A stretch of 64,000 nucleotides of DNA from Oscillatoria sp. FACHB-1406 (GTDB lineage Bacteria > Cyanobacteriota > Cyanobacteriia > Cyanobacteriales > Spirulinaceae), in the NCBI RefSeq assembly GCF_014698145.1, contig NZ_JACJSM010000001.1, positions 88,633 to 152,632 of the forward strand. The letters are read 5' to 3'. Under the pieces are notes generated by a model that was not told the DNA's origin, searched no databases, and saw only the letters and a program-made list of their open reading frames with translations. Below are positions 2,336 through 12,626 of this stretch, one piece after another; the first letter of the stretch is position 1; every line of letters starts with the position of its first letter. The position numbers and the translations under genes were made by a program.

Positions 2336-3196
2336 TTACAATAACGAATCCATCAAATCCATAATCCGGAGACTTTCTGAGGACAATTCAGGCAATTGTT
2401 TCTCGCCGTGAATGAGTTCGTATTCCAATAGCCCTTTCAAGGAGATGATCTTGAGACTGTTTTCGGCTAAGGTGGCTGCGATCGCCTCAGCCGCTGGCAA
2501 GTATCCGATCGCGCCTAAATCCATCAAGGCCGAGCGCCGCAGTTGCAATTTATCATCTAACAACGCCTCTTCCAGCCGCTTACCATATTTGTCTTCCCTT
2601 GTCAACTGATATAAAGCGCGAGCGGCAGAATATTGGACTTTGGGAACGGGATGCTCGAGAAAGGGTTGAATCGATGCGCTCGCATCGCTGGCTTGCAGCA
2701 TCCCGATCGCTTCGAGAATCGCCGCATAAGGTTGTACTAAGTGCGGTTTACCCGCTTGCTCAACCGCCGCAGCTACGCCCCCCTCCAATAATCCCACTAA
2801 CGCCGGAATTGCCGTCGCATCGCCCAACATTCCTAGGGCTTCGGCAGCAGACTCCCTCACGTAATAATCTTCGCACTGCAAGCAGTCGATCAGGGCAGAC
2901 ACAACGCGGCGATCGCCCAATTTTCCTAACGCTGTCGCGGCGTTTCGCCGCAGGGGATAGCCGCCGTCGGGCGTGCGGTCGGCTTCGTCGGTTAGCGCTG
3001 CCCACAGTGCTTCGACAGCTTCGGGCGTGCGGACGCGATTTTTGCCCAGCCACCAAGCCGCATAGTAACGCTGTCCCAAGTCTTCTTGTTGTTGCAACCG
3101 CGCGATCGCGCTTTGAGCCGTCCAAGACGAATCATCGGCAGAACTAACTTCTACCGATGATTCCAAGCCGGTCTGAATTTCTGGCTTATCGTTCAC
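2336..3196 (-). CDS. cpcE: phycocyanobilin lyase subunit CpcE (HEAT-repeat protein)
   Basis: 286 aa with HEAT/PBS-lyase repeats. The sequence YYAAWWLGKNRV...TPDGGYPLRRNAATALGKLGD...CEDYYVRE...KPHLVQPY...KVQYSAARAL...LQLRRSALMDLGAIGYLPAAEAIA...NSLKIISLKGLLE...LDLMDSLL matches CpcE closely. It is the last gene of the cpc operon. Confidence 0.85.
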   Translation of the reverse strand: MNDKPEIQTGLESSVEVSSADDSSWTAQSAIARLQQQEDLGQRYYAAWWLGKNRVRTPEAVEALWAALTDEADRTPDGGYPLRRNAATALGKLGDRRVVSALIDCLQCEDYYVRESAAEALGMLGDATAIPALVGLLEGGVAAAVEQAGKPHLVQPYAAILEAIGMLQASDASASIQPFLEHPVPKVQYSAARALYQLTREDKYGKRLEEALLDDKLQLRRSALMDLGAIGYLPAAEAIAATLAENSLKIISLKGLLEYELIHGEKQLPELSSESLRIMDLMDSLL

Positions 3197-3249
3197 TGTT
3201 TCCTAACGATTGTTGGCTTTCTAACTCAGCATTCTCTTCTATAGAACGC

Positions 3250-3507
3250 TTACTGAGCCTTAATGCTAACAATTTTACCGCCCATACGATTGATACGTTG
3301 CATTTCTTCGTTCATGCGGCTGTAGGGAACGACGATCGAAATCGTGCTGCTGGAGCGAAACTGATAATTATTGCTGTCGTTGCTGGTATTTTGTTTTAAA
3401 CCTTCAACTTCATAAATGAAAACGCGACCTTTTGCAGGGCTATCGGAGCCTCCAACCAGAGCAGAGCGACCAAGCATTGTTAAAATTCTCCTACTTTGAA
3501 ATGTCAC
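3250..3507 (-). CDS. cpcD: phycobilisome rod-capping linker CpcD (small CpcD-domain protein)
   Basis: 85 aa with a CpcD domain (MLGRSAL...GRVFIYEVEGL...VPYSRMNEEMQRINRMGGKIVSIKAQ). It lies between cpcC1 and cpcE. Confidence 0.85.
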   Translation of the reverse strand: MTFQSRRILTMLGRSALVGGSDSPAKGRVFIYEVEGLKQNTSNDSNNYQFRSSSTISIVVPYSRMNEEMQRINRMGGKIVSIKAQ

Positions 3508-3631
3508 AAAAAAGAGTTAAATCGGGCGATCGAGGGTTAACGAAGCCGTTCCGAGCCGAGAAATTTCAATCTCGCTATCGTAACCGCACGCTAATGCCCC
3601 GATCGCCCGAAGATGTAGTTAATGAAGTTAA

Positions 3632-4510
3632 CTACGCCGGGGTGATACTGGCAACTTTACCGCCTTGGCGGTTAATGATTTGCAGCGTGTTGTTAAGCTC
3701 TTCGTAAGGTACGATCCAAGCTTTGCTGGCACGGCGCACGCGAGGATAACCTTGCTTGCTCATCCCAGCGACTTCAATACGATAGAGGCGACCGGGAGTA
3801 CCAAATGGCGTAACGCCACCGAGAGCGCGACTAGGCGTTCCGCCCGAAGCGCGCGAGCGGGAGGCGACGTAAGCCCAACCGTTACTGCTGTTGGAAGGAG
3901 CCACCACTGAGGAAACGCTATTGCGAGCCAATTCGCCCGCTAAACGTCCACCTTTGCTATTAAGTTGCGCGCGATCGCTATTCGCATAACCGCGATACAG
4001 ACCCAACATCCGCGTAAAGCCAACGGTTCTGTGACCCGTTTGGACTTCAAAGCTATGAATGTAAGGGACGATATTTTCGCCAAAGTATTGGTTGTACTCG
4101 TCCGAATCGATATAAGAATCGATATCGGCATCGTACCCTTCGTTTTCGTAACGATCTAAGTGTTCGATAATTTCAGCTTCACTATAGGGCGCGCGTCCCA
4201 ACAGATGCTTGAAATTAAGCTCGATAACCCGCGATTGGAAGTTGGGGTAGAAGAATTTATTCTTATACAGTTCCGACTTTGCAACGGCACGAACAAACTC
4301 TTTAACGCTGAGGGAGCCGTTCGCCAAGAGCGATTCTGCGCTCGTGAGGCGTTCCGACTTCATCAGGTAGTCGTTTCCGAGGACGTGGCGATAAACAGCA
4401 TTGATGACGGCTTTCGCATCATCTGGACTCCAGTTAGGGCGAAGCTCTAAAGGCTCCATCTCAGCGAAGGCAGAAGTCCCCAACCGAGAGGCTGCGGTCG
4501 TAATTGCCAT
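3632..4510 (-). CDS. cpcC: phycocyanin-associated rod linker CpcC (PBS-linker domain plus C-terminal CpcD domain)
   Basis: 292 aa. The N-terminal PBS linker domain ([47 protein letters not shown]) and the C-terminal YRIEVAG...[25 protein letters not shown] are diagnostic. It is the second of two tandem paralogs. Confidence 0.85.
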
Positions 4511-4548
4511 TCAGTTTTCTCCTTAAGTTATATTGGATTATTCACGCG

Positions 4549-5361
4549 CTAGGCGGGCGAAACCCCTAGCACTTTGCCACCCCGAGCGTTGATTTCTTGC
4601 AACTTGCTCGATAACTGCTCGTAAGGAACGAGGTACTCGAGGTTGCTGCGACGAATTTTTGCCATACGGCCGGGTTTTGGCGCTTGGATGGCCCGAACGC
4701 GGTAAAATTTACCTCGGCTGCCTCCCGAAACGCCGGCAAGCGCTTCTTGGGTAGAGCCAATGAAAACACGAGATGCCGTATTTTGAGCGACTTCGCGCGT
4801 CAGGCGGCCTGCTTGCACCGCGCGATCGCTCGTGGCATAACCGCGATACAGTTGGAACATTCGGCTGAAACCGACCGTTTTTTGACCGCGCTGCGTCTCA
4901 AAGCCGCGATAATACGGCACGATTGAGTCGCCAAAGTTTTCTTGATATTCGAGCGAATCGATGTAAGAATCGATGTCGGCTGCGTATCCCCGTTGATTAT
5001 AAAGATCGGTATGATAAGCGACTTCTGACTGGTCGTAAATAGCTCGTCCCAGCAGGTGCTTGTAGTTCAACTCGATAAAGCGGTTTTGGGGAAGAGTATG
5101 AAAAAACTTATTGCGATAAACTTCCGACTGAGCCACTGCTCGGACGAAATCTTTAACGCTAATGGAACCATTGCGTAATAAAGATTCAGCGCTGGTTAAG
5201 CGCTCGCCTGCCATTAGGTGGTCATTCCCCAAGACTTGGCGATAAACCGCGCGAATCACAACTTCTGCATCTTCGGGAGAATAGTTCGGACGTAGCTCTA
5301 CCCGTCCCGACTCCAGAAACGGTTCAAATCCCAACCGTTGGGCTGCTGCTAAACTTGTCAT
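4549..5361 (-). CDS. cpcC: phycocyanin-associated rod linker CpcC paralog (PBS-linker plus CpcD domain)
   Basis: 270 aa with the same architecture ([16 protein letters not shown]...[20 protein letters not shown]...YRVRAIQ...[25 protein letters not shown]). It lies immediately downstream of cpcA. Confidence 0.85.
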
Positions 5362-8726: not shown

Positions 8727-10916
8727 ATGGAATTTTTCGAGAGCGAAAGGTTTAGCGAGATTGTTAGTCGGTGTAAGCATAGCGCGATCGGTAAGCATTT
8801 AGCCAGCGCTCTCTACGTTCATGTAAGCGCCCTTCCCGCGATCGATTTATGCTTGCAGGATTACGAAAAACTCGCTCGCAGCGCTACTGAAGGAGTGCCT
8901 AGCGCTACTCTAGTTAAATTTAACCTCGAGAAACCGACGCTCTCTTATCTTTTTTATCCTGACTTCGATCGCGATCCGCATCCCGCCCTACACGCCAGCA
9001 TTCAAGTCAATTTATTAACTTTAACGGCAACCAGGCGAGATTACAGCACTGTATCCAATTCTCCCATTTTGCATCGCAAAGAAACTTTTGTTTTACCCGA
9101 TTATCCTCACTACGCTCAATTTGCAGAACTGACACGCCAGGAAGAAGCATTAGGATTGCTTGCCAACGCTCGTTTTATTGGCACGCGCCGTCAATGGTTG
9201 CAACGGTTAGCCTTTCATGAAGTCGAAATTATCGACCATCAAGTTATTCAAAATTCAAAATCAACAGATCGAAATGAACAAGATATAGAAGTCATTCAAA
9301 ATTTAATTGTTGAAATTCAAAGCGATCTAGAAGATAGAAGGGAAATTCAAAATGAGGGAATTATAGAAGAAAAAGTCGAACCTTCTGTTACTCTTATTGT
9401 ACCGCCGGTTGAAATTGCGCGCCATCGAGCAGCAATTGCGCGCAAACAGTTATCGCGTCCGACGCGAGTTGTACTAGAAGCGGGATTGTTTGAAGAAGGA
9501 ACGACGTTTTTTGATTATGGATGTGGGTACGGTTGGGATTGCGATCGCATCGCCGAACAAGGCTATACTAGCTCCGGCTGGGATCCCTACTATCGCCCCA
9601 ACGTACCGAAAGTTGCGGCAGATATCGTTAATTTAAGCTACATTATCAACGTTATTGAAGACCCAAGCGAACGTAGAGAAGCGTTAATTAATGCTTGGGA
9701 ATTAACCCAAAAAGTGTTAGTAGTCGCCGCGCAAGTTCTCATCCAAGATTCGTTTAGCGGACAAATTGCCTATGGCGATGGAATTATCACGCGGCGCAAT
9801 ACTTTTCAGAAATATTACGAACAGGAAGAACTAAAATTTTATATCGATCGCGTCCTCGAAGTCGATGCAATTCCGGTGGAGTTAGGGATTTACTTTGTCT
9901 TTCGCGATGCGACGCAAGCGGAAGCTTTTCGCGCTTCCCGATTTCGTTCCCGCGCGACAACACCGCGCATTCGCAAACAAGTCCGTCGCTTTGAAGACTA
10001 CGAAGTCATGCTAGCCCCGCTGATGGCGTTTGTAACGGAACGAGGACGATTGCCGGTTAAAGGGGAATTAATACAAGAAGCGGAGATTTGGCGCGAATTT
10101 GGCAGCCATCGCCGCGCTTTTGATTTAGTGTTGCAAGCGACAGAGGAATCGGAATGGAGCGCGATCGCAGAAAAACGCCGCCAAGACCTTAAAGTTTATT
10201 TAGCGCTTTCTCATTTTGGCAAGCGTCCGAAAGCGAGCGAACTCTCGCCACCCGTAAAAGAAGATTTCAAAGCGTTATTTGGCAGTTACAAACAAGCCTG
10301 TTTGCTTGCAGATTTAATGTTATTTAGCCTTGGCGACTTGCAAAACATTACCGATATTTGTCGAACGAGTCCGGTGGGTAAAAAATTAACAAAAAGTTTT
10401 ACCGTTCATTTCAGCGCTTTAGAAACGCTTGACCCACTTTTGCGGTTGTATGAAGGCTGCGCCAGTCGCACTTTTGGGCGTTTAGAATCAGTGACATTAG
10501 TTAGATTCCATCTCGATCGCCCGCAAATTTCCTACTTATTTTATCCCGATTTCGATCGCGACCCTCATCCCGCCCTAACAACCAGTATGCACGTTGCGCT
10601 CCAAGACCTCCAAGTTTTTTACCAAGAGTACGACGAAGACAATCCGCCCCTCCTCCATGAAAAAGATTTATTCGTTCTGCCCGACTACCCCAACGCCGAA
10701 AAATTCGCAAAATTAACCCAACAAGAGAAAGATTGGGGTTTGCTGGATGACTATCGCGCCATTCGATCGCGTCGCGGCTGGTTGAAGTGTTTGGAAGACC
10801 ATTCTGCGATTCTAAAAAATCACCAATTAACGCGCTGTAAAGATGCCGACCCGTATAAATTAAAACTGTTGCGTGCAGCCGTTAGAACTCGTCAAAAAAA
10901 GCGAAGCCAAACCTAA
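8727..10916 (+). CDS. large class-I SAM-dependent methyltransferase-like protein with an internally duplicated ~100-aa flanking domain; possibly related to the 'DNA phosphorothioation-associated putative methyltransferase' family
   Basis: 729 aa. A central Rossmann MTase core carries motif I FFDYGCGYGWD, post-I SSGWDPYY and motif II ADIVNLSYIINVIED. Residues ~60-165 (LVKFNLEKPTLSYLFYPDFDRDPHPAL...HRKETFVLPDYPHYAQFAELTRQEEALGLL...RRQWLQRL) are repeated at ~565-670 (LVRFHLDRPQISYLFYPDFDRDPHPAL...HEKDLFVLPDYPNAEKFAKLTQQEKDWGLL...RRGWLKCL). The family assignment rests on recollection, not a search. Confidence 0.6.
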   Translation: MEFFESERFSEIVSRCKHSAIGKHLASALYVHVSALPAIDLCLQDYEKLARSATEGVPSATLVKFNLEKPTLSYLFYPDFDRDPHPALHASIQVNLLTLTATRRDYSTVSNSPILHRKETFVLPDYPHYAQFAELTRQEEALGLLANARFIGTRRQWLQRLAFHEVEIIDHQVIQNSKSTDRNEQDIEVIQNLIVEIQSDLEDRREIQNEGIIEEKVEPSVTLIVPPVEIARHRAAIARKQLSRPTRVVLEAGLFEEGTTFFDYGCGYGWDCDRIAEQGYTSSGWDPYYRPNVPKVAADIVNLSYIINVIEDPSERREALINAWELTQKVLVVAAQVLIQDSFSGQIAYGDGIITRRNTFQKYYEQEELKFYIDRVLEVDAIPVELGIYFVFRDATQAEAFRASRFRSRATTPRIRKQVRRFEDYEVMLAPLMAFVTERGRLPVKGELIQEAEIWREFGSHRRAFDLVLQATEESEWSAIAEKRRQDLKVYLALSHFGKRPKASELSPPVKEDFKALFGSYKQACLLADLMLFSLGDLQNITDICRTSPVGKKLTKSFTVHFSALETLDPLLRLYEGCASRTFGRLESVTLVRFHLDRPQISYLFYPDFDRDPHPALTTSMHVALQDLQVFYQEYDEDNPPLLHEKDLFVLPDYPNAEKFAKLTQQEKDWGLLDDYRAIRSRRGWLKCLEDHSAILKNHQLTRCKDADPYKLKLLRAAVRTRQKKRSQT

Positions 10917-10939
10917 AAATTGTTTGAAAGCTCATTAGC

Positions 10940-11118
10940 GTCAACTTAAGGTGAAACACTTAGCCCGCCAGGAACTCAAGTTCCTGCCCGATCGCTGAAA
11001 CCCGTTGAAACGGGTTAAATACATTTGAATTTCCCAGTCCTATAAAGAGGACTTGAGTTATTAGCCTTGGGTTTGAACCCAAGGCGGGCTAGGTGAGCAG
11101 GTTTAAGCTTAAGTTGAC
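10940..11118. repeat. ~180-bp element bounded by inverted repeats (GTCAACTTAAG...CTTAAGTTGAC and TTAGCCCGCC...GGCGGGCTAG), enclosing four perfect 18-20-bp hairpins
   Basis: Hairpins CAGGAACTCAAGTTCCTG (10969..10986), AACCCGTTGAAACGGGTT (10999..11016), AGTCCTATAAAGAGGACT (11036..11053) and CCTTGGGTTTGAACCCAAGG (11066..11085). The element sits in the spacer between the convergent MTase-like gene and amt. Confidence 0.6.
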
Positions 11119-11213
11119 ACCAATGAACATTGTTATGCCCTCTTCGGGAATCGTGAAAAATTAATGAGAATTGGTATAAGAACGGTATCAGTCCGCTCGT
11201 TATCCATTGTCAA

Positions 11214-12626
11214 TTACTCGACAGTTTCTCGCTTGCTGGCATAGGCAGAGGAACCGCCCAAGAAATCTTCCTCGCTATATCCTTCTTCTCCGTGAACGGG
11301 AACGTCAATCCCTTGCGTTTCAACTTCAGGATGGACGCGCAAGGGCATAATAGCTCCTAAAATTTTGAGTAGAACGAACGTGCCGACTGCTGCAAAAATG
11401 TAGGTCGCTGCAACCCCAACAAATTGCTCCCAAACCTGTACGGGATTGCCAAAGAATAAGCCATTATCGCCAAATTCATTGACGGCTTTAGTGGCAAACA
11501 AACCCGTCAACATCGCACCTACTGTTCCGCCAACGCCGTGAACGGGATAGGTATCGAGGGAGTCGTCGAACCGAAGTTTGGCGCGCCAACTGACGGCGTA
11601 GAAGCAGCAAACAGCCGTAATCGAACCAATCATAATCGCACCGATGGGAGTCACGAAACCAGCAGCGGGCGTTACGCCAACGAGTCCGGCAAGAAATCCG
11701 CTGGCGATGCCAATGGCGGTTGGTTTGCCGCGCAGCACCCATTCTAAAAGAACCCAGGTCAGTCCTCCAGCAGCAGTCGCGACGAGGGTAGCGACGAAGG
11801 CAACAGTTGCTAGCGCGCCCGCCCCTAATGCACTACCCGCATTAAAGCCGAACCAACCGAACCAAAGCAACCCGATTCCGAGAAGGACAAAGGGGACGTT
11901 ATGGGGCGGCGTTTGGCGATCTGGAAAGGTGCGACGCGGCCCTAAAACCCAAGCGGCGACAACGGCAGAAACCCCCGAACTGATATGAACGACGGTTCCT
12001 CCGGCGAAGTCTAACGCGCCGAAACTGCCAATCCAACCTTTACCCCAAACCCAGTGGGCGAGGGGGGAATAGATGAAGGTTGACCACAGCAAAACGAACC
12101 AAAAATAAGCTTTAAAGCTCATACGTTCGACGATTGCGCCGGAGATGAGTGCGGGGGTGATGATGGCGAACATAAGCTGGTACGCCATGAACACTTCGTG
12201 GGGGATGGTGGGCGCGTAGCCGACGGGATCGGGCGCATCGAAGGCTACACCGTTCAGGAAAAGCCAATTCAAGCTACCGATGAAGGGATTGGCGGTGAAG
12301 GCGGGATCTGCTCCAGGAGTGATGGAGGTGGGGGCAAAGGCGAGGCTGTAACCCCAGAAGACCCAAGTTACGCCGACGATAGCCATTAGAATGAGGCTCA
12401 TCATCATGGTATTGAGGACATTGCGCGATCGCACCAATCCGCCGTAGAAAAAGGCTAAGCCGGGAGTCATCAACAACACCAACGCTGAAGAGACGAGCAT
12501 AAAGGCCGTATCGCCCGTATCGATTTTTGGGGCAGCGGCGGCAGCCTCCTGGGCCCAAGCCGCTTCAGTAAACGGCCCGCCCATTAGTCCGAGGGCAAGC
12601 AGCAAAACGATTAAAATTTTTGCCAT
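11214..12626 (-). CDS. amt: ammonium transporter (Amt/MEP family) with cleavable signal peptide
   Basis: Amt-family TM protein (DFAGGTVVHISSGVSAVVAAWVLGPRR..., WFGWFGFNAGSA). The ORF track starts at 12677 (MTPAYFFNL...). The internal ATG at 12626 (MAKILIVLLLALGLMGG...AWAQEAAAA) gives the signal peptide typical of cyanobacterial Amt1 and is preferred. The longer form is not excluded. Confidence 0.85.
   Translation of the reverse strand: MAKILIVLLLALGLMGGPFTEAAWAQEAAAAAPKIDTGDTAFMLVSSALVLLMTPGLAFFYGGLVRSRNVLNTMMMSLILMAIVGVTWVFWGYSLAFAPTSITPGADPAFTANPFIGSLNWLFLNGVAFDAPDPVGYAPTIPHEVFMAYQLMFAIITPALISGAIVERMSFKAYFWFVLLWSTFIYSPLAHWVWGKGWIGSFGALDFAGGTVVHISSGVSAVVAAWVLGPRRTFPDRQTPPHNVPFVLLGIGLLWFGWFGFNAGSALGAGALATVAFVATLVATAAGGLTWVLLEWVLRGKPTAIGIASGFLAGLVGVTPAAGFVTPIGAIMIGSITAVCCFYAVSWRAKLRFDDSLDTYPVHGVGGTVGAMLTGLFATKAVNEFGDNGLFFGNPVQVWEQFVGVAATYIFAAVGTFVLLKILGAIMPLRVHPEVETQGIDVPVHGEEGYSEEDFLGGSSAYASKRETVE

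Follow-up and report, generated by a model that had tools for sequence, protein, structure and literature searches.

An intergenic hairpin cluster of Oscillatoria sp. FACHB-1406 is probably an old copy of a composite mobile element, an IS4-family frame around a hairpin doublet that also occurs beside Y1 transposase genes

The element described here lies in a 64-kb stretch of DNA from Oscillatoria sp. FACHB-1406 (the window), in a convergent spacer of 297 bp between the stop codon of a 729-aa gene at 10916 and the stop codon of amt at 11214. The amt gene encodes a transporter of ammonium (Pfam Ammonium_transp, E = 7e-124), and the 729-aa protein is 100% identical to an entry of the same organism named by NCBI as 'DNA phosphorothioation-associated putative methyltransferase'. 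Wholly inside this spacer, and filling most of it, is an element of 193 bp (10933-11125), which carries 18-bp terminal inverted repeats (TIRs) around four hairpins and has no coding capacity, with no open reading frame (ORF) of at least 50 aa overlapping it. Its core is two-fold symmetric and consists of two inverted copies of one 63-nt half-unit, the diverged half-unit A and the near-canonical half-unit B (Table 1). The element is a mobile-element relic and not a terminator or known RNA. It is probably an old and immobile copy of a non-autonomous composite mobile element with two layers, in which the outer frame is an ordinary IS4-family MITE (a miniature transposable element with inverted repeats) and the inner layer is the half-unit doublet.

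A preliminary description made from the sequence had placed here a nested-hairpin element with four perfect 18-20-bp hairpins at 10940-11118, and had proposed a miniature inverted-repeat element, a structured small RNA (sRNA) or a protein-binding array. All the sequences that it quoted were found where it had located them. Three of the hairpins have perfect stems of 8-10 bp, but the one at 11036-11053 has a stem of only 6 bp with a 6-nt loop. The repeats taken as limits are also present, GTCAACTTAAG being perfect over 11 bp (10940-10950 and, as the complement, 11108-11118) and the inner repeat TTAGCCCGCC / GGCGGGCTAG complementary at 9/10 positions (13 nt at 92% in a repeat search), but the true span is 10933-11125 and the terminal repeats are 18 bp rather than 11 bp, agreeing with each other at 15/18 positions.

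The half-unit consists of CCCGCC, hairpin 1 (~7 bp), the linker GGCTAATAGCTnAAGTC and hairpin 2 (GTCnnn...nnnGAC). The two-fold symmetry was exposed by a weak plasmid match in Allocoleopsis, which had the same architecture and other stem sequences. With a genome search pattern of CCCGCC, 14-18 nt and GGCTAATAnnTnAAGT, which half-unit B fits, the half-unit was found in at least 120 genome loci; among the matches listed almost all were from filamentous cyanobacteria, and several genomes held multiple copies. In ~1 Mb of pattern-selected loci there were 226 half-units, including 69 head-to-head doublets with inner gaps mostly of 0-22 nt and 88 solo units. Half-units occurred in both orientations, solo, doubled, in tandem and within differing mobile frames. 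Within the 64-kb window a second copy of the element or of the half-units was found neither by BLAST nor with the covariance model, so that the copy-number check proposed in the preliminary description gave a single copy locally and a widely conserved motif among cyanobacteria. The case of a single-copy sequence without conservation, which that description had set against its own proposal, therefore does not hold at the family level.

A covariance model (R1) was built from 131 half-unit copies, with half-unit A of the window absent from the training set. Among these copies, 92.9% of the stem cells were paired, compared with 73% in shuffles and 26-48% in slid controls, and the covariation score was 0.534 versus 0.164 in shuffles, a level reached by 0/500 of them. 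The linker was nearly invariant also in 80 units outside the search pattern. The stem mismatches showed no wobble preference (G·T 42 versus A·C 57), and the constraint therefore acts on DNA, or on both strands alike, and not on a one-strand RNA, which points to a hairpin palindrome constrained at the DNA level. In half-unit A of the window the canonical linker GGCTAATAGCTnAAGTC is overwritten by GCCCGATCGCTGAAACC, which has 7/8 bases of the cyanobacterial HIP1 repeat GCGATCGC; the degraded linker at 10987-10996 reads CCCGATCGCT, again with 7/8 of the HIP1 octamer. This suggests HIP1-directed sequence drift inside the relic.

For the outer layer, many loci were observed in which the half-unit doublet is bounded by ends of the window type, CATTGGTGTCAACTTAAG. 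These family elements are ~195-210 bp long and have a 9-bp target duplication. The window copy is colinear with this doublet-bearing family from end to end (terminus, linker, half-unit, spacer, half-unit, linker, terminus), with an identity of 66% to the family consensus compared with 82-95% for typical members. In the genome loci, the 9-bp flanks were identical at 7/9 or more positions in 19/29 TIR pairs (10 of them perfect; mean of the shifted control, 2.4/9), and in the metagenome loci the same was found for 13/38 TIR pairs. The duplicated 9-mers fit the palindromic consensus RGCAnTGCY, as in AGCATTGCT, GGCACTGCC and GGCAATGCC, and in many cases a longer palindrome with a GTAG tag is centred on the 9-mer. 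Since the family has target duplications and the window copy has none, the window copy is placed as a decayed member. Of the three proposals of the preliminary description, the miniature inverted-repeat element is thus borne out, the termini, the colinear body and the behaviour of the family being those of a non-autonomous IS4-family element.

The same termini also enclose unrelated cargo (L127, L012, L033 and L078 among the collected loci, which are cited by L numbers), and half-units were present in only 5/39 MITE-sized elements of the metagenome sample. IS4-type elements were found in the middle of a palindrome resembling repetitive extragenic palindromes (REPs), GTAGGGGCACAGCAnTGCTGTGCCCCTAC (L005 3935-4290, L127 3490-3720, L126 3495-3515 and window 11126-11140), which has a GTAG tag as in the GTAG REP families reported from cyanobacteria; because insertion is at the centre of this palindrome, the terminal repeats seem longer than they really are. 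Scans of viral contigs for the family gave three chance coding matches in one and none in the other, plasmid BLAST gave few copies and no autonomous element, and ORFs adjoining those terminal repeats of the genome loci that had no partner proved to be host genes only (AcrB-like, secretin, TPS). A literature search with the sequence strings of the element returned nothing relevant. In L128, one terminal repeat proved to stand next to a nested IS630 that has separate ends. At this locus (2639-4681) a TnpB-like ORF is interrupted by the IS4-type terminal repeat at 3513, and the IS4-type element is itself split by the IS630-family element, with inverted repeats at 3557-3598 and 4640-4681.

Table 1. 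Features of the element at 10933-11125 and of its flanks in the window
Feature	Position	Strand	Description
Left flank TTGAAAGCT	10924-10932		Expected target duplication site, decayed; agrees with right flank at 3/9
Terminal inverted repeat CATTAGCGTCAACTTAAG	10933-10950	+	With the next GTGAAAC, resembles the family 'right-end' type
Linker, terminal repeat/core	10951-10960	+	From the family alignment; length variable among members
Half-unit A, diverged	10961-11023	+	CCCGCC and two hairpins; covariance model R1 43.9 bits, E = 1.7e-10
Hairpin	10969-10986		In half-unit A; 8-bp perfect stem
Hairpin	10999-11016		In half-unit A; 8-bp perfect stem
Spacer between inverted half-units	11024-11028		From covariance-model boundaries
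Half-unit B, near-canonical	11029-11091	-	CCCGCC, hairpin 1, GGCTAATAACTCAAGTC, hairpin 2; R1 68.9 bits
Hairpin 2 of half-unit B	11036-11053		AGTCCT/AGGACT, 6-bp stem, 6-nt loop
Hairpin 1 of half-unit B	11064-11085		10-bp perfect stem
Linker, core/terminal repeat	11092-11107	-	From the family alignment
Terminal inverted repeat CATTGGTGTCAACTTAAG	11108-11125	-	Exactly equals the family consensus
Right flank AACATTGTT	11126-11134		Palindromic 9-mer, 7/9 like the preferred target RGCAnTGCY

Autonomous relatives of the outer frame were found in the metagenome scan, where elements of 1392-1488 bp between paired TIRs contain ORFs of 446-464 aa and, where intact, have the 9-bp duplication. Three of these loci (L192, L156 and L229) have intact ORFs and the same 18-mer ends, and match NCBIfam transpos_IS4_1 (NF033592) at 156-200 bits (cutoff 115). 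The IS4-type ORFs match Pfam DDE_Tnp_1 (PF01609) with the motif Y-QR-R-WRI-E-DAFLLT-K, and the L192 protein has the Y(2)R(3)E(6)K motif, YQRRWRIEDAFLLTK. Deletion intermediates between insertion sequence (IS) and MITE were observed at 1188, ~835, 763 and 473 bp.

The family ends match the end signature of the IS231 subgroup, CAT-------AA--TAA--- (PMC2266710), at all 8 specified positions, and the window end CATTAGCGTCAACTTAAG also fits it. The ends of IS231C, CATGCCCATCAACTTAAGAAT with an 11-bp duplication, were taken from a copy on a Bacillus thuringiensis plasmid; the family terminus CATTGGTGTCAACTTAAG is identical to this end at 13/18 positions, including TCAACTTAAG at positions 9-18, and the window end CATTAGCGTCAACTTAAG at 12/18. 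The element thus resembles the IS231 subgroup in its CAT-start terminus with TCAACTTAAG, in a DDE enzyme with Y(2)R(3)E(6)K, in its varied cargo and in target-selective insertion. However, the direct repeat is 10-12 bp in that subgroup and 9 bp here, the transposase of IS231C is only distantly related to that of the family (~30% over short stretches), and the cargo of this frame is a REP-like doublet, unlike the IS231/MIC231 cassettes. The hosts also differ, being cyanobacteria here, whereas nearly all IS231 matches were from Bacillus/Clostridium plasmids and the subgroup is described as concentrated in a single phylum (PMC2266710). With an IS231 transposase query, validated by 99.4% identity to the annotated IS231C, no homologue of the IS231C transposase was found in the collected cyanobacterial loci. 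The IS4 family overall does span the 9-bp duplication (IS10, 9; IS4Sa, 8-10). Because of the 9-bp duplication and the distant transposase, the element is placed in the IS4 family, outside the IS231 subgroup proper.

For the inner layer, Y1 genes were found in two unit-containing loci by a local probe (Pfam Y1_Tnp 92-98 bits, NCBIfam IS200/IS605 85-87 bits). An IS608 TnpA query served as a probe only, with the matches confirmed independently by Pfam and NCBIfam. Seven further Y1 loci from other genera were chosen by protein homology alone, and in 9/9 loci half-units were observed at 160 bp or less from the Y1 gene. In three of them (L256, L257 and L259, from Anabaena, Heteroscytonema and Cyanosarcina), a bracket form was present with a unit on the plus strand, the gene, and a unit on the minus strand. 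The doublet is this Y1 bracket minus the gene, that is, a gene-less REPIN-like or TIRtron-like derivative. For comparison, 54 kb of loci selected on other grounds held no half-units, the canonical IS200/IS605 TnpA locus (L215) held none either, and a metagenome control gave 20 half-units in 750 kb of loci. Clustering of the ORFs of 125 unit-selected loci gave no common function or recurrent neighbour, and the Y1 gene, present in only 2/125 loci as expected of a single-copy gene, went unseen there.

The nine aligned Y1 proteins have the motifs DHIH, WQ and Y[VI]xNQKxHH and a length of 146-155 aa, with exceptions to the motifs in L254 and L260. The L260 protein has a DHLH variant, and in the Y1 protein of Microcoleus sp. 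FACHB-53 (L254 2501-2944) a serine replaces the catalytic tyrosine, AVDSVKNQKAHH, so this copy may be inactive. TnpA_Y1 subclass 1.2 has been described with the motifs DH[IV]H, WQ and Y---Q--HH and a length of ~148 aa, as cyanobacterial and low-copy, and is recorded as 'REP: no' and without IS properties (Quentin 2018, PMC6006769). The nine genes appear to belong to this subclass, as judged by their motifs, since they fit its motif and length signature, are low-copy and occur in cyanobacteria. The difference is that the survey has no REP partners for it, whereas here all nine genes are flanked by half-units. It is tentatively proposed, at somewhat less than an even chance, that TnpA_Y1 subclass 1.2, so far an orphan, has its missing DNA partner in the half-unit, and that in a REPIN-like or TIRtron-like system of cyanobacteria a class-1 (IS200-like) Y1 transposase maintains hundreds of hairpin doublets, some captured as cargo of DDE-type MITEs, so that one element would answer to two transposition machineries.

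The half-unit/Y1 pair was compared with described repeat systems. REPINs and RAYTs (REP-associated tyrosine transposases; Bertels and Rainey 2011, PMC3116915) are similar in being dispersed intergenic inverted doublets of a palindromic unit, with a flanked low-copy Y1/HUH gene and compensated stem changes. They differ in that the half-unit here has two hairpins and a conserved 17-nt linker and is flanked by CCCGCC and GGCTAATAGC with no GTAG/CGTC tag, and in that the Y motif of RAYTs (class 2) is Y---NP, whereas the proteins here have the class-1 IS200-like Y---Q--HH and fail the RAYT model. The pair can be regarded as resembling a REPIN/RAYT system yet lying outside the RAYT protein family. 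In architecture, the bracket form of L256, L257 and L259 comes nearest to the TIRtrons/TIRYT (Di Nocera 2013, PMC3733652). These contain a Y1 gene with long inverted repeats on both sides, of which some are self-complementary or 'double palindromic', and the repeats form moderately abundant families as dimers or clusters. They were, however, described for RAYT-like (class 2) proteins, and the hosts named for them include Acidobacteria and Stenotrophomonas; protein subclass, repeat sequence and host phylum all differ from those found here.

The Nezha and Anabaena-Nostoc MITEs (Zhou 2008; Wolk 2010; Fewer 2011) are described (PMC3184786, PMC6042816) as small, with terminal repeats, a ~10-bp direct repeat and a strongly folded interior, and as probably mobilised by an IS in trans. 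By description, Nezha has ~138 bp and a 10-bp direct repeat, compared with ~195-210 bp and 9 bp in this family. The Rfam family Acido-Lenti-1 (RF01687) was the only one that repeatedly touched half-units, and resembles them in its two hairpins, a linker starting with GGCUAAU and a second stem of GUxCC...GGxACU. Membership was rejected, as the scores of 29.3, 23.2 and 25.8 bits stayed below the gathering score of 37 and the majority of canonical units gave no match; that the half-units share ancestry with repeats accompanying Y1 genes in Acidobacteria is no more than a tentative suggestion. The small dispersed repeats (SDR) of Nostoc, a subject ascribed to Elhai in 2008, are reportedly very short hairpins that recur in filamentous cyanobacteria and often lie inside larger repeats.

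Several observations weigh against the composite element and its proposed Y1 partner. At the window copy the target duplication is absent, with a 3/9 match between TTGAAAGCT and AACATTGTT, and the closest homologues of the 729-aa gene, compared in search of an empty site, were at most 72% identical, had other neighbours and were without the element. Since there is neither a duplication nor, among these homologues, a syntenic empty-site relative, we infer insertion at this spacer from family membership. No IS4 or Y1 transposase gene was found in the 64-kb window, where the element is single-copy. The association between Y1 genes and half-units is one of position. The NCBIfam label of the Y1 proteins is IS200/IS605 transposase, and they score 22-25 bits with the curated RAYT model NF047646, for which the cutoff is 80. 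Covariation alone is no proof of selection, because intrastrand templated repair can keep palindromes perfect. Finally, a second terminal type around the same doublet, CTSAGATCTTGCACC, has direct repeats of 4-5 bp, which Y1 transposition does not predict.

This second type was present in L104, L111, L120, L032, L038 and L084 (for example L120 4722-4882); its repeat ends in CTSAG, and perfect 4-mers were observed in 5/17 cases and in none of the control. A further small element with the ends ATGAGACTGTTGG...CCAACAGTCTCAT and a single half-unit was found in L012, L056, L060, L070 and L125 (for example L012 1030-1290) and represents one more frame in which this module is used. Tandem arrays of whole doublets, partial units and the 5' part of a unit were present in L077 (1404-1938), L106 (182-520) and L021 (6330-6420), respectively; the whole-doublet array has a 186-bp period with 2.9 copies that are 99% identical, and the partial-unit array a 112-bp period with 3 copies. 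Genes resembling Uma2-family (DUF820) endonucleases recur beside solo half-units in Hormoscilla and others (L021 6404-7312, L016 47-1333 and L111 2498-3268), and in L021 the Uma2-family gene is bracketed by plus- and minus-strand half-units.

Other origins of the window element were also considered. The element is located exactly between two convergent stop codons, where its stable hairpins would fall in both 3' untranslated regions, and could thus be a bidirectional terminator or 3'-end stabiliser selected by the host for the convergent genes, with the repeat similarity being secondary. MITEs and REPs elsewhere in bacteria are indeed reported to stabilise or destabilise adjacent mRNAs (PMC3733652). 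This origin is nevertheless unlikely, as neither strand has a T-run after any of the hairpins, the scan of 10700-11400 gave no promoter-like sites and no terminator-like ones on either strand, the element recurs with target duplications in hundreds of unrelated settings, and relatives of the methyltransferase-like gene have other downstream neighbours and no such element. An incidental effect on 3' ends fits a transposon relic and supplies no alternative origin; at most, the window element may incidentally stabilise or block the 3' ends of the methyltransferase-like and amt mRNAs.

Quite improbable is the case in which core and terminal repeats are unrelated, a REPIN-like doublet having landed between chance or relic IS ends, so that the 193-bp unit never moved as a whole. 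The half-unit core was observed with at least 3 other kinds of flank and also without any, the linkers between terminus and core vary in length, and the window copy is without a target duplication, all of which would agree with it. However, ~20 copies from different genera, colinear in terminus and core, have 9-bp duplications directly outside the termini that are perfect or nearly so, indicating that the composite transposes as a unit, and the window copy is colinear with them over its whole length.

The folding of both strands, which the preliminary description had called for, strongly exceeded the controls of 200 dinucleotide-preserving shuffles per strand. The plus strand folded at -80.7 kcal/mol (shuffles -50.7 +/- 4.1, z = -7.3) and the minus strand at -91.0 kcal/mol (shuffles -51.2 +/- 4.2, z = -9.45), with 0/200 shuffles as stable as the element on either strand. 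These very stable predicted folds, the covariation of both hairpins across the 131 copies and the sub-threshold resemblance to Acido-Lenti-1 at 11036-11084 (29.3 bits, E = 2e-4) are what would be expected of a structured sRNA or a one-strand cis-acting RNA element with the multi-hairpin fold as its functional product. Such an RNA is very unlikely here, and this proposal of the preliminary description was not upheld. Neither the window nor ~200 kb of related loci gave an Rfam match at the gathering score, the spacer region has no promoter- or terminator-like site, the two-fold symmetric element folds equally well on either strand, there is no G·U preference in the stems, and the units are found in either orientation, solo, doubled, in tandem and in different mobile frames. 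Rfam matches to a microRNA and to plasmid RNAIII were rejected, being explained by the long hairpins.

A palindromic operator array for dimeric regulators, for example for nitrogen control of amt, could be suggested by four palindromes in 120 bp and the conserved 17-nt linker, but it is scarcely credible, since the element is located 3' of amt and not at its promoter, the stems vary freely yet stay complementary, which is the opposite of sequence-specific operators, and the neighbour genes of the copies share no function. The protein-binding array of the preliminary description may be right only in a limited sense, as the hairpin units are, by analogy, most likely single-stranded DNA substrates of a Y1/HUH transposase and not an array of regulator sites.

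For the composite element, the following mechanism is predicted. In the outer layer, an IS4-family DDE transposase acting in trans would cut and paste the frame, generating a 9-bp duplication and preferring a palindromic 9-mer as target, and such an enzyme would have placed the window copy into the palindromic 9-mer of the spacer. In the inner layer, by analogy with REPs and IS200/IS605 ends, a Y1 enzyme may recognise the half-unit as folded single-stranded DNA through the shape of the stems and the conserved linker, the latter being the sequence-specific part. The window copy is probably inert now, since its target duplication is lost, one linker is overwritten, its identity to the consensus is 66% and the window has no transposase.

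The genomic contexts of the Y1 genes are recorded here as well. In three genera a subclass-1.2-like Y1 gene was found with a gene resembling dndC (PAPS_reduct) on one side and one resembling dndD (AAA_23/SMC_N, 661 aa) on the other, at L055 4766-7793, L254 120-4768 and L261-L267 (gene at 1501-1968), and in Limnoraphis the Y1 stop codon overlaps the dndD start by 4 nt. The window element likewise adjoins the gene for the 'DNA phosphorothioation-associated putative methyltransferase', possibly by coincidence. In Leptolyngbyaceae UHCC 1019 (L260 1501-3450), the Y1 gene is within a type I-D cas operon, in the order of a 1103-aa ORF (start overlapping), the Y1 gene, and then Csc2 and Csc1, and a doublet of half-units is located at 1932-2052. 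As the Y1 gene was repeatedly seen within operons of dnd or cas genes, the system may be linked to defence islands.

For annotation, the spacer between the methyltransferase-like gene and amt holds a transposon relic rather than a regulatory RNA or a purpose-built terminator. Because the half-unit repeats disrupt assemblies and pass for structured RNAs when genomes are scanned, the covariance model is of practical use. The window relic itself is of low functional interest, but it brings to light what is probably a new form of the partnership between REPs and Y1 transposases in cyanobacteria. If this is true, the orphan subclass 1.2 would gain a testable substrate, with the half-unit as a ready-made oligonucleotide for binding and cleavage assays, the REPIN/RAYT concept would extend to IS200-like class-1 enzymes, and DDE-type MITE frames would be able to carry REP-like doublets as cargo.

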